Sequence record: NC_103567.1
Origin: a phage
Length of the DNA: 49,223 bases
Strand: one strand, 5' to 3'
The first letter of the stretch is position 1. Each line of letters begins with the position of its first letter. Shown here piece by piece: positions 22,591 through 43,227 of this stretch. Made by a program: the position numbers and the translations under genes. Below the pieces are notes generated by a model. That model was not told where the DNA came from. It saw nothing but the letters and a program-made list of their open reading frames with translations, and did not search any database.

Positions 22591-23349
22591 ATGGATGAAA
22601 AACAGATCAAAAAGACTTTTGAAAATTGTCTGCAATCGCTTTTTCCTGGTGAGATTATTACTCTTGTCGAGGTTGACGGCACAAAATTTGGTGCTCAGGT
22701 TTACCGCTTTCATGCTGAAAATATCGCGTACACGCCAGAGGAATTAATGCAAGCGCGTGAAACTGGAATATTGCCGCCTAAAGACATTAAATTCCGTGGT
22801 GAGGTTTACGGGGCGCGGCCTTTTGGGATTACTGGCATAGGATTTACAAGTAACGGAAAGGCAGAGAAACCACAATTAGCGCTTTCAAATTTAGATAGCC
22901 GCGTATCTGCATTAATCAGATCATATAATGGCATGATGCAAGCCAAAGTAACAATTTGGGTTACATCGGCTGATTTAATTGATGATGAAGGTAATGTGGA
23001 GGACGGCGCATATAGAAAACTGGTTTATTATATTGAGCGTCCAAATTTTGTTAATCAGACGGTTGCACGTTTTGAATTAACATCACCTTATGATATGGAT
23101 GGAATTATGATCCCGCCACGACTTACGCAAAGCGTTTGTTATTGGGCGCAACGTGGATGGTATAGAAGCGGTAAAGGTTGCGGATATAACGGATCTGCAA
23201 TGTTCGATAAAGATAATAATCCTGTAACAGATCCGAGTAAGGATTATTGCGCCGGAACGGTAACAGCTTGCAAATTGCGTTTTGGTCCTGAAAATGAATT
23301 AGATTTCGGCGGAGCGGCTGTTGCTTCACTGTTGAGGAAAAACCAATGA
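22591..23349 (+). CDS. minor tail protein (lambda L-like)
   Basis: 252-aa ORF with Cys-containing C-terminal region, canonical position. Confidence 0.6.
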   Translation: MDEKQIKKTFENCLQSLFPGEIITLVEVDGTKFGAQVYRFHAENIAYTPEELMQARETGILPPKDIKFRGEVYGARPFGITGIGFTSNGKAEKPQLALSNLDSRVSALIRSYNGMMQAKVTIWVTSADLIDDEGNVEDGAYRKLVYYIERPNFVNQTVARFELTSPYDMDGIMIPPRLTQSVCYWAQRGWYRSGKGCGYNGSAMFDKDNNPVTDPSKDYCAGTVTACKLRFGPENELDFGGAAVASLLRKNQ

Positions 23350-24068
23350 TTAATGCAAAAATTAAACTTGAAATTATGCGACACGCTAATGATGTTTATC
23401 CTAATGAATGTTGCGGCCTGGTAACTCAAAAATCACGCGTCCAGAAATATCACCGGATCGATAACGTAAGCAAAGAGCAGGAAAAGCATTTTGAAATGGA
23501 CGCGACACAATACGCAGAGGTTGAGGATAGCGGCGCGGATATTATCGCCATAGTTCACAGCCACACAGGGGAAGGGGCAACCACAATCCCTAGCGCACAC
23601 GATTTGTGCATGTGTGATGAAACTGGTGTTTCTTGGGTTATCGTTTCGATACCAGAAGGAGACATGAGAATCATAGAGCCACAATCACGGCCTTTGATTG
23701 GTCGCCCCTGGTCGCTTGGTGCTTATGATTGTTGGGGTCTTATTATGGCATGGCATAAAGAGCAAGGCGTGATCCTGAATGATTTCCGTAAGCCGTATGA
23801 ATGGTGGAAGCCGGAACATGGTGAAAACCTTTATCAAGATAATTACTTGAAAGAAGGTTTTATAGAAACAGGAGAGCCACCAAAGCCAGGTGATATGATC
23901 ATAATGCAGTTGCAAGCGCCAGTATGGAACCACGCAGGAATTTATTTAGGCAACAATCAACTATTGCATCATGCATTCGGCAAGTTGTCGCGAGTTGATT
24001 TATATTCTGGATGGTATCAGGAACACACAACAATGATTTGCAGACATAAGGATCTGAAAAATGAATAA
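23346..24068 (+). CDS. tail assembly protein (lambda K-like, MPN/JAB plus NlpC/P60 domains)
   Basis: HSHTGEGATTIPSAHD resembles a JAMM motif; YDCWGL resembles the NlpC/P60 catalytic Cys. Confidence 0.7.
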   Translation: MINAKIKLEIMRHANDVYPNECCGLVTQKSRVQKYHRIDNVSKEQEKHFEMDATQYAEVEDSGADIIAIVHSHTGEGATTIPSAHDLCMCDETGVSWVIVSIPEGDMRIIEPQSRPLIGRPWSLGAYDCWGLIMAWHKEQGVILNDFRKPYEWWKPEHGENLYQDNYLKEGFIETGEPPKPGDMIIMQLQAPVWNHAGIYLGNNQLLHHAFGKLSRVDLYSGWYQEHTTMICRHKDLKNE

Positions 24069-41189: not shown

Positions 41190-41207
41190 TTAAATTATCA
41201 AGAAAAA

Positions 41208-41237
41208 GGCTGGCTAAGTGCTGGCCTTTTTTTGTTT
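41208..41237 (+). terminator. terminator-like hairpin plus T-run before the lysis cassette
   Basis: AAGGC...GCCTT stem followed by T7. Confidence 0.45.
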
Positions 41238-41300
41238 TTGTGGTTAACATATTCACACTAATTTTGGCATTGACATTTTAATTTAATTGAGGATCAGATT

Positions 41301-41525
41301 ATGAGAGACTTTCTTTTAATGGCGCAAAACTCTTTCGGAGGTGCAACGGTAGTTGGATCTTTTACTGGTGAGTTTTTGCTTGCACTTGCTACGTTTATTT
41401 TGTTCGCTATTTTCGGCTGTTGGGGCGCATGGCTGAAATGGCGTGATAGTAAAGCGATCCGAGAGGCTTTAGATTCAGGGGATTTAAAAACGGCGCTTAA
41501 TCTACGGCAGAAAGAGAGGGTGTAA
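41301..41525 (+). CDS. holin (pinholin-like, two transmembrane helices)
   Basis: 74 aa with two hydrophobic helices and a charged C-terminus; immediately upstream of the endolysin. Confidence 0.7.
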
Positions 41526-42016
41526 TGACAATCAAGAAAGGTATAGCCGCCACCGTCACAGGGGCGGCTTTAATGTTGGCATCGCCTTTGATTGAAGAAA
41601 TTGAGGGCGTAAAGTATAAGCCTTACAAGGATATTGCTGGAATCTGGACGGTATGCCACGGCATTACCGGAAAGGATGTGATTCTTGGAAAGGAATATAC
41701 CAGGCGAGAATGTGACGCGCTATTAGCAAAACACATGAAAGTAGCGGCTGACGCTGTTGATAAGGCGGTTAAGGTTGAAATTCCTTTATCAATGCGAGCG
41801 GCTCTATACTCATTCACTTTTAATGCTGGTACTGGCGCGTTTCGTAAGTCAACCATGCTGAAAAAGATCAACAATGGTGATCTATGGGGCGGTTGTGGTG
41901 AGCTATGGAACTGGACATATTACCGGAACCCTAAAACTGGTAAAAAGGAAAAATCAAGAGGATTGAAGAACCGCCGCGCCGTCGAATATAAATATTGCGT
42001 AAGGGATCTTAAATGA
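41525..42016 (+). CDS. SAR endolysin (lysozyme)
   Basis: 163 aa; N-terminal weakly hydrophobic [18 protein letters not shown] then [24 protein letters not shown], resembling phage P21-type SAR lysozymes. Confidence 0.8.
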
Positions 42017-42402
42017 AAAAGAAATTAATGGCTGTTTTGATGTGCGTTATGCTTTCCGGTTGTTCTGCGTCGAGCTTGTTACCTGGCCTGATTGGTAGCA
42101 AGCCCGATATAACAGCACAGGCAGGATCTGAAAATGTGAAACAAACTGTTGGTGTAACTGCAAAGCATGATACATCAAGCAAGCAGGAAACCACATTTAA
42201 AGAATCGGCTGTTGGAAAGGTTGACACGTCGAATAAAAAACAGGTGAGCACTTCAAGCATTAAGGCAGATAACATCACAGCGGAAAGAATAGAGATCCGA
42301 AATAATGATGGTCTTAATGTTCCGGCAATCGCAATGGGTATATTGATGTTTATTGCGGGTATGCTGGCAGGGTGGGCACTTAAACGTAACAAGGCGGCAT
42401 AA
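42013..42402 (+). CDS. unimolecular spanin
   Basis: 129 aa; N-terminal lipoprotein signal [17 protein letters not shown] and C-terminal helix [18 protein letters not shown], the architecture described for the T1 unimolecular spanin. Confidence 0.7.
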
Positions 42403-42418
42403 GCCGCCTTTTCTTTTA
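42391..42418 (+). terminator. rho-independent terminator after the lysis cassette
   Basis: AAGGCGGCATAAGCCGCCTT followed by a T-rich run. Confidence 0.6.
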
Positions 42419-42637
42419 AAAAATATTGTTCATTAAGTCTTGGAAACTATTACCGCTATAATCCTTTTCCTCAATAATGTGAGCGCCTTTCTTTTTTATA
42501 TCCCACAGCATTTTTTCATATTCGCAGCGGTTAATGCCAAACGTACTACCATCATCAACATATGCGGTTCCTTTGTTGTTGAAAACGTCAAATGTAACAT
42601 TAACAACGCGAATTGTTTTGATAGTGCATTTTAACAT
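42416..42637 (-). CDS. hypothetical protein
   Basis: 73-aa ORF; AAAGGA RBS on the minus strand; motif copy at 42698 upstream. Confidence 0.55.
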   Translation of the reverse strand: MLKCTIKTIRVVNVTFDVFNNKGTAYVDDGSTFGINRCEYEKMLWDIKKKGAHIIEEKDYSGNSFQDLMNNIF

Positions 42638-42697: not shown

Positions 42698-42718
42698 GTT
42701 TTAACAAAAAGTGCTATT
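42698..42718 (-). promoter_or_regulatory. 21-bp motif, class I (reverse complement)
   Basis: GTTTTAACAAAAAGTGCTATT on the plus strand; an inverted repeat lies downstream in the direction of transcription. Confidence 0.6.
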
Positions 42719-42834
42719 CAAAGCGCCTGACGTGAATTAGTAGTTCACCGTCATCATTTGTTAACTGGTGCTCATTATCTTCAAACGCTCGCATATCACT
42801 GTAAAGCAACAACATTAGTGCATAGACAAAATCA

Positions 42835-43227
42835 TCATGCGAAATTTGCATTGCTGAACTTTCTTTCAAAATAAGATCTATCAAATGCTGGCTTGCTGAA
42901 TAATTCTTCATCGCTCATTTTCTCAATGTTCATCATCTCCCACACATAACGATTGGAATCACCTTCCAGGCTATGCAACTCAAAATTAAACGGCCTTTTC
43001 ATCTTGTTTTTGCACCAGTACACGCAATGAACGCCGTCAAGATATCCATAACCCATCATTCGCGCTATAAACTCTTTGCTTGAGCTTGAAGCGAAATAGC
43101 GGGGCGTTACCCCCGCATTTTTGGCGAGCCTTTCACATTCACGGTGACGGAATATAAATCTTGCTAACTCTTGGCGGTTGAATTTCTCGCGAGACTCGCA
43201 AAAGCGATACAGATCTAATAAGAACAT
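42835..43227 (-). CDS. hypothetical protein, translationally coupled to the upstream P-loop ATPase gene
   Basis: 130-aa ORF starting 2-3 nt after the stop of the 526-aa gene. Confidence 0.55.
   Translation of the reverse strand: MFLLDLYRFCESREKFNRQELARFIFRHRECERLAKNAGVTPRYFASSSSKEFIARMMGYGYLDGVHCVYWCKNKMKRPFNFELHSLEGDSNRYVWEMMNIEKMSDEELFSKPAFDRSYFERKFSNANFA

Follow-up and report, generated by a model that had tools for sequence, protein, structure and literature searches.

In this study, the region between positions 41301 and 42402 of a phage DNA sequence (NC_103567.1; the whole stretch of 49,223 nucleotides analysed is hereafter called the window) was investigated, and we observed that it very probably is the cassette by which a Tlsvirus phage carries out lysis in three steps, made up of a holin, an endolysin of the signal-anchor-release (SAR) type and a unimolecular spanin (u-spanin). 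A sequence-only reading had placed a pinholin, an endolysin of this type and a single-molecule spanin in three successive open reading frames (ORFs), and these were found at the same positions, all on the + strand: 41301-41525 for the holin (74 aa), 41525-42016 for the endolysin (163 aa) and 42013-42402 for the spanin (129 aa). The genes overlap at their stop and start codons, by TAATG at the holin/endolysin junction and by ATGA at the endolysin/spanin junction, and such overlapping junctions, as predicted here, are the usual arrangement for translational coupling. Judged on homology, the three ORFs are real genes and not chance ORFs, because the endolysin belongs to PF00959, all three products match PHROG profiles, and homologs occur in many phage records (824 for the holin and 1170 for the spanin). 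By comparison, an antisense ORF of 127 aa that spans the spanin gene (42009-42392, minus strand) was rejected as a chance ORF, because it is interrupted in the phages TLS and Stevie, where the longest open stretch is 67 aa.

The holin and the pinholin question

The first gene of the cassette (41301..41525, + strand) encodes a holin of the T1 gp13 family (PHROG 2877), which is described here as a putative class II pinholin on the basis of PHROG and T1 homology and of hydropathy; topology and signal calls throughout this study were made from hydropathy and rule-based checks. The match to PHROG 2877 (E=1.7e-35) extends over residues 1-71 of 71, and the identity to T1 gp13 is 55%. Two hydrophobic segments were noticed in the protein. 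The first (aa 4-23) is Gly-rich and weakly hydrophobic, with a Kyte-Doolittle (KD) value of 1.08 for aa 4-21 and a summed Hessa value of about +6.3 kcal/mol, while the second (aa 25-47) is a strong transmembrane domain (TMD), with a KD value of 2.27 for aa 25-42 and a summed Hessa value of -2.2, and is followed by a basic cytoplasmic tail. Segment 1, including its G19xxxG23 motif, is conserved across the whole family. Again, in 16/16 cassettes, a small Drexlerviridae sample out of the 824 holin records, the gene after that of the gp13-type holin was observed to encode an endolysin whose N-terminus is SAR-like, and this constant company of a SAR-type endolysin is what a pinholin requires.

With reference to the best-known system of this kind, the protein resembles S21 (PF04971; EssD) in its length (74 against 71 aa), in its weak Gly-rich segment 1, strong TMD2 and basic cytoplasmic tail, in the presence of two in-frame Met starts, and in having a SAR endolysin gene directly downstream. 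It differs from S21 in that no sequence similarity is detectable, in that the loop between the helices has about 2 residues here and about 10 there, and in that its second Met is found in Tlsvirus only.

Several of our results weigh against calling this holin a pinholin. No Pfam family, PF04971 included, matched the holin at E<=0.1, and BLASTP against EssD gave no alignment at E<=100, with EssD itself matching PF04971 at 2e-35 as the positive control. Only about 2 residues (G23-E24) part the two hydrophobic segments, and the curated record of T1, which carries the name 'pinholin class 2', gives '1 transmembrane domain, N-out C-in'. A search of the literature found no experiment on the T1 gp13-type holin family. 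A pinholin is defined by nanometre-scale holes that do not pass the folded endolysin, and in phage P1 a SAR endolysin works alongside a canonical holin (PMC6116005). SAR endolysins thus work with canonical holins too, and the pairing is no proof of a pinholin. Taken together with the high summed Hessa value of segment 1, which is poor for a TMD lying some 2 residues from TMD2, the missing S21 homology, the T1 record and the P1 case favour an alternative to which we assign a real but clearly minor share of the probability, namely that the holin is not a pinholin and is instead either a class II holin of the canonical, large-hole kind or a protein with a single TMD, N-out and C-in, and a periplasmic Gly-rich N-terminus; depolarisation would still trigger the SAR endolysin in either case. 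This alternative is countered by the validated S21-type TMD1 of EssD, which is likewise Gly-rich and less hydrophobic still (KD 0.41 against 1.08 here), by the family-wide conservation of the Gly-rich segment with its G19xxxG23 motif, by the finding that in none of the 16 cassettes does a gp13-type holin adjoin a soluble endolysin, and by the annotations from the Young/CPT group, which all say class II pinholin. It can therefore be said that the assignment of the 74-aa holin to the pinholins is plausible. The two hydrophobic segments and the adjoining SAR endolysin of the sequence-only reading stood, in agreement with published annotation, and the absence of S21 similarity and the loop of about 2 residues leave its pinholin label itself less secure than the remainder of the cassette.

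The possible dual start of the 74-aa holin received separate attention. Only in Tlsvirus is codon 7 a second in-frame Met (MRDFLLM, 41301-41321); the relatives have Ala or Thr at this place, and the T1 holin has no second Met; the same M1RDFLLM2 double start was noted for the TLS holin (PMC11447400). Met7 is preceded by a weak Shine-Dalgarno sequence, and no sdi-like RNA structure was obtained from 41262-41345, of which the predicted fold was no better than that of shuffled sequence (z=+1.14). Regulation of the holin by a dual start is accordingly unsupported, given the weak Shine-Dalgarno sequence, the z value and the lack of Met7 outside Tlsvirus. We also considered that gp13-type holins may form a distinct pinholin class independent of S21, built either as a near-loopless hairpin or as an N-out single TMD with a periplasmic Gly-zipper, together with M1/M7 holin/antiholin control in Tlsvirus and no need of DUF7244; this composite proposal is regarded as rather unlikely.

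Two annotation errors were noticed among the holins that we compared. The DELF2 holin (segment 792-1007) is annotated 17 codons short, an apparent start-site error, and the holin of Klebsiella phage K50_evo28 (segment 1601-1840) is an intact ORF of 79 aa that is annotated as two fragments and contains an 8-residue duplication in its tail.

The signal-anchor-release endolysin

The second gene (41525..42016, + strand) encodes a putative R21-type SAR endolysin of the GH24 (T4-type lysozyme) family, identified from Pfam, PDB and T1 homology. The protein matches PF00959 at E=1.1e-35 and the PHROG endolysin at 9e-53, and its top match in the PDB is 3HDE (phage 21 lysozyme, 165 residues; E=5.4e-45), followed by DLP12 RrrD (4ZPU). 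The alignment with 3HDE covers endolysin residues 3-159, the N-terminal SAR segment included, and phmmer pairs residues 3-22 with residues 5-24 of 3HDE at high posterior probabilities. The identity is 61% to T1 gp12 and 52% to RrrD over the catalytic domain.

The putative SAR segment itself (aa 6-23; 41540..41593, + strand) was recognized from hydropathy, composition and the alignment with R21, and lies directly behind K4 and K5. It has a KD mean of 1.72, contains 56% Gly/Ala/Ser/Thr and has no Cys; by comparison, the SAR segment of RrrD shows a KD value of 2.27 and 61% Gly/Ala/Ser/Thr, and the genuine TMDs of this cassette contain 33-39% of these residues. Since the segment has no Cys, the enzyme would be of the R21 type and not of the P1 Lyz or the disulfide-caged (Lyz103) type. 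Behind the segment lies the catalytic triad E27-x8-D36-x5-T42 (41603..41650, + strand), which was found by a regular-expression match and aligns with E35/D44/T50 of R21/RrrD. The enzyme therefore shares with R21 and RrrD (3HDE, 3HDF, 4ZPU) the GH24 fold family, the E-x8-D-x5-T triad and a Cys-free, Gly/Ala-rich N-terminal SAR segment. It differs from them in that the linker between anchor and catalytic Glu is 6 residues shorter, with 3 residues in every T1-type enzyme examined against 9 in R21, and in that 6 residues are inserted near the C-terminus; unlike in the R21 system, the partner spanin is unimolecular and not an Rz/Rz1 pair. SAR behaviour has been demonstrated for R21 (reviewed in PMC6116005).

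The possibility that the signal is cleaved was considered with the (-3,-1) rule of signal peptidase I. Small-residue sites that agree with the rule occur after residues 12-15 only, inside the hydrophobic core, and there is no compatible site from residue 16 to Glu27, with Pro21 standing directly after Ala19-Ser20. This pattern argues against cleavage of the putative endolysin signal, with the qualification that the rule discriminates poorly (RrrD has many compatible sites) and is not a proper cleavage prediction. A single-sequence AlphaFold2 model of the endolysin was too poor to interpret, with a mean predicted local distance difference test (pLDDT) value of 41.6 and a predicted template modelling (pTM) score of 0.34.

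One record stands against this view of the enzyme. The Sazh protein, identical in 162/163 residues, is annotated 'putative soluble endolysin', and with this label and the (-3,-1) sites after residues 12-15 the enzyme might be read as lacking SAR regulation, being either soluble and cytoplasmic and in need of holin holes or secreted with a cleavable Sec signal peptide. We consider this very improbable. The single residue by which the Sazh and window endolysins differ is far from the N-terminus and the N-terminal segments are identical, so that the annotations differ where the sequences do not, and the 'soluble' label is an annotation inconsistency and not biology. Again, the segment aligns with the experimentally established SAR domain of R21; the compatible sites lie within the hydrophobic core, where cleavage would put the catalytic Glu a few residues from the new N-terminus; and a segment with this mean hydropathy after two lysines is unexpected in a cytoplasmic lysozyme. 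The assignment as a SAR endolysin is thus supported by homology to R21 that includes the SAR segment, by composition, by the basic N-terminus and by the catalytic triad. The Gly/Ala-rich N-terminal segment before the catalytic region, to which the sequence-only reading had pointed, is present in the protein, and the homology search against known SAR lysozymes that it had advised returned the R21 structure with this segment aligned.

The labels of this protein in public records were also found to vary. Stevie, whose record comes from the same sequencing programme as that of Sazh, calls its near-identical protein 'SAR endolysin' (the segments compared were 1126-1617 for Sazh and 1826-2320 for Stevie), and further public labels for the same protein are 'lysozyme RrrD', 'lysin' and 'endolysin'.

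The unimolecular spanin

The third gene (42013..42402, + strand) encodes a putative u-spanin of the T1 gp11 family (PHROG 1804), as recognized from PHROG and T1 homology and from the feature table. The match to PHROG 1804 (Rz-like spanin) has E=7.4e-51 and covers the full length, and BLASTP against T1 gp11 gives 39% identity (E=5e-29) over 98% of the length. This identity falls just below the 40% clustering cut-off of PMC6139136, and intermediates at 50-64% link both proteins. T1 gp11 is the prototype u-spanin and complements a lambda Rz/Rz1 defect, and its LSGC lipobox has been mutated experimentally (PMC6139136).

All the elements expected of such a protein were detected. A lipoprotein signal peptide with the lipobox L14-S-G-C17 (42013..42063, + strand) was read from the sequence and from the family alignment; the lipobox LSGC is the same as that of T1 gp11, and the +2 residue is Ser, which denotes outer-membrane sorting, and not Asp. 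At the other end, a predicted C-terminal inner-membrane anchor (aa 104-124; 42322..42384, + strand) shows a KD value of 2.14 over residues 106-123 and is followed by the tail KRNKAA with 3 basic residues. The TLS ortholog, identical in 117/129 residues, has a TMHMM helix at 101-123 and a lipobox identical to that of T1 (PMC11447400). The periplasmic domain between the two anchors has 86-88 residues and 0 Cys, and this domain was reported to be beta-rich in T1 gp11 and TLS gp69 (PMC6139136, PMC11447400).

The lipobox, the +2 residue, the C-terminal TMD with its basic tail and the absence of periplasmic Cys are kept in 15/15 family members, drawn from Tempevirinae, Tunavirinae, Braunvirinae, Rogunavirinae, Webervirus, Eclunavirus, an unclassified Yersinia phage and two Autographiviridae. 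The lipobox variants in these 15 proteins are L[ST]GC or VSGC, with Ser or Ala at +2, and the VSGC site of Ec_L1 is followed by Ser. The + strand of the cassette contains no second or embedded ORF with a lipobox, the spanin being the sole match, and the lipobox pattern matches on the minus strand were confined to the unconserved antisense ORF 42009-42392. In comparison with lambda Rz/Rz1, the protein has the same role and the same last position in the cassette and likewise joins the membranes by one TMD and one lipoyl anchor, and it differs in being one polypeptide, with no embedded gene, no periplasmic Cys and a gp11-type domain that is reported as beta-rich and not coiled-coil.

Weak matches of the 129-aa protein to the Cor profile PHROG 1119 (E=2.6e-4, residues 1-54) and, in NCBIfam, where no match exceeded the threshold, to the TraV lipoprotein might suggest a Cor-like superinfection-exclusion protein or another envelope lipoprotein, and this is hardly credible, as both matches are essentially limited to the signal peptide, whereas the match to PHROG 1804 is full-length (E=7e-51), the protein is related to the complementer of lambda Rz/Rz1, the C-terminal TMD that defines u-spanins is present, and the gene is the last of the cassette, is translationally coupled to the endolysin gene and has no rival among other spanin candidates. 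The assignment as a u-spanin is therefore supported, and disruption of the outer membrane would be its function by homology to T1 gp11. The earlier proposal of a single-molecule spanin in place of a pair of inner- and outer-membrane spanins (i- and o-spanin) was borne out by the LSGC lipobox, the C-terminal helix, the lack of a separate + strand o-spanin gene and the homology to T1 gp11.

Among the family members compared, the spanin of phage Rtp (segment 1501-1890) is annotated from an internal Met, with only 7 residues before the lipobox Cys, and an upstream GTG restores MLKWIAALVMCVALSGC, which points to an apparent start-site error.

Proposed course of lysis

From these assignments, lysis in this phage would proceed in three steps, of which the pinhole size, the holin topology and all the dynamic steps are what we infer from the related systems. 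The 163-aa GH24 lysozyme would be exported by the host Sec system, and its uncleaved SAR segment would hold it inactive at the periplasmic face of the inner membrane, with Glu27 only 3 residues from the anchor. Meanwhile, the 74-aa holin would build up in the inner membrane and trigger at a set time, and its lesions, most likely small 'pinholes', would collapse the proton-motive force. After depolarisation, the SAR segment would exit the bilayer and the enzyme would refold and digest the peptidoglycan. The u-spanin, lipoylated at Cys17 for insertion into the outer membrane and held in the inner membrane by its C-terminal helix, would be caged by the peptidoglycan mesh until then; with the mesh gone, it would be able to act on the outer membrane and disrupt it, probably through fusion of both membranes.

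Comparison with related cassettes

The cassettes of Tlsvirus phages (TLS gp67-69, Stevie gp38-40, Sazh 069-071 and PCST1 00011-00013) share the genes, their order, the overlaps and the terminators with the window. The Sazh proteins are identical to those of the window in 74/74 residues for the holin, 162/163 for the endolysin and 129/129 for the spanin. The spanins of TLS and Stevie differ from that of the window in 11-12 of 129 residues, and otherwise nothing of substance distinguishes these cassettes.

Comparatively, T1 (gp13/gp12/gp11) shares the three-gene architecture, the order and the LSGC lipobox, at identities of 55%, 61% and 39%, respectively. T1 differs in that, directly upstream of its holin gene, it has a gene for an SH3-fold protein, gp14 (DUF7244, E=8.8e-29), as do many other Drexlerviridae, and the window is without it. 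The interval that corresponds to T1 gp14 (41190-41300) has 111 bp and contains only a terminator and a ribosome-binding site, and a tblastn search of the whole window for a gp14/DUF7244 homolog gave chance-level matches only. The best of these (23207-23269, E=0.01) was rejected, as it falls within the tail genes at 22591-24068, in antisense orientation. The SH3 gene was proposed as an accessory lysis component that is 'widespread, though non-universal' (PMC13164509), and since it was already reported to be non-universal, its absence here is not new.

Boundaries, transcription signals and neighbouring genes

The 5' boundary of the cassette is marked by a predicted intrinsic terminator (41201..41233, + strand), which was detected in a terminator scan as a 14-pair stem with a T-run and which ends the upstream gene for an exonuclease (T1 gp16-like); its counterpart is annotated as a terminator in Stevie. 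A Shine-Dalgarno sequence, GAGGA (41291..41295, + strand), was read 5 nt before the holin ATG, and a ribosome-binding site is annotated at the matching place in Stevie and Sazh. Among the points against the present account is that, on the + strand, no sigma-70-type promoter was predicted in the stretch from the upstream terminator to the start of the holin gene (41234-41300), where a perfect TTGACA at 41270-41275 stands without a usable -10 element. Transcription of the cassette may come from read-through of the terminator or from a phage-specific promoter.

The 3' boundary is formed by a predicted bidirectional intrinsic terminator (42391..42410, both strands), also from the terminator scan. 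Its stem consists of the last spanin codons and the TAA stop codon of the spanin lies in its loop, and it also serves the convergent minus-strand gene at 42416-42637. The Stevie record places the counterpart of this terminator on both strands, and the T1 record gives it for the minus strand. The cassette is flanked upstream by the gene for a gp16-like exonuclease and downstream by gp10/gp09-like genes, which lie on the opposite strand; no Pfam match was obtained for the small flanking genes. Further 3' of the cassette, two small hypothetical genes on the minus strand (42714-42911 and 42835-43227) share 77 nt, read in different frames. The Stevie and Sazh records list both genes, and neither matches Pfam.

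Relatives and lineage of the phage

Over 41200-42450, the nucleotide identity is 100% to Salmonella phage vB_SeTS_UALMA_PCST1 (PQ374047), 99.9% to phSE-2 and phSE-5, 99.1% to Citrobacter phage Sazh, 95.6% to Citrobacter phage Stevie and 90.5% to phage TLS, all of which belong to Tlsvirus (Drexlerviridae, Tempevirinae). When positions 1-25000 of the window were used as the query, 89-96% of them aligned with Sazh, phSE-5, TLS and PCST1, at identities of 92-97%. Because this identity to the Tlsvirus set extends over 25 kb, the window is, on nucleotide comparison, a Tlsvirus genome, though it is not the PCST1 isolate throughout.

The T1-like lineage claimed in the sequence-only reading is thus upheld by the identity to Tlsvirus genomes and by the T1-type synteny around the cassette. 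Its view that the u-spanin is the strongest argument for this lineage needs to be qualified, since gp11-type spanins are found in Autographiviridae too and the spanin alone is not lineage-diagnostic. Better lineage markers are the gp13-type holin family and the synteny; among the matches listed for the holin, all were genomes of 43-57 kb bar one fragment of 1.6 kb.

The two Autographiviridae compared, Klebsiella phage fHeKpn01 (Drulisvirus; segment 1801-3041) and Pantoea phage LIMEzero (segment 1774-3222), were noticed to have the gene order spanin, holin, endolysin, and their holins are unrelated. Comparison of these sequences indicates that the spanin module has passed from one phage family to another independently of the other cassette genes. 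Again, a few records carry unexpected host names. OR786094.1 (Streptococcus phage MBBL140) shows an identity of 94% in the cassette and of 92.8% along 25 kb. The same enterobacterial Drexlerviridae cassette occurs in 21 records named 'Campylobacter phage', MG065665.1 and MG065681.1 among them. The Streptococcus and Campylobacter labels on these cassette-bearing records are probably mislabelled hosts or contaminants.

Significance

The cassette described in this study is already known, and at least three papers have described it, on sequences that are identical or nearly so. In the record and the paper of Stevie, the three are named pinholin, R21-like SAR endolysin and unimolecular spanin (PMC4319613), and the TLS re-annotation of 2024 describes the cassette in the same way (PMC11447400). 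The finding therefore carries little weight beyond correct annotation, and it confirms the window as a Tlsvirus phage. The conflicting labels that one and the same protein has received ('SAR', 'soluble', 'lysozyme RrrD' and 'lysin') nevertheless matter for endolysin mining and for the engineering of therapeutic phages.

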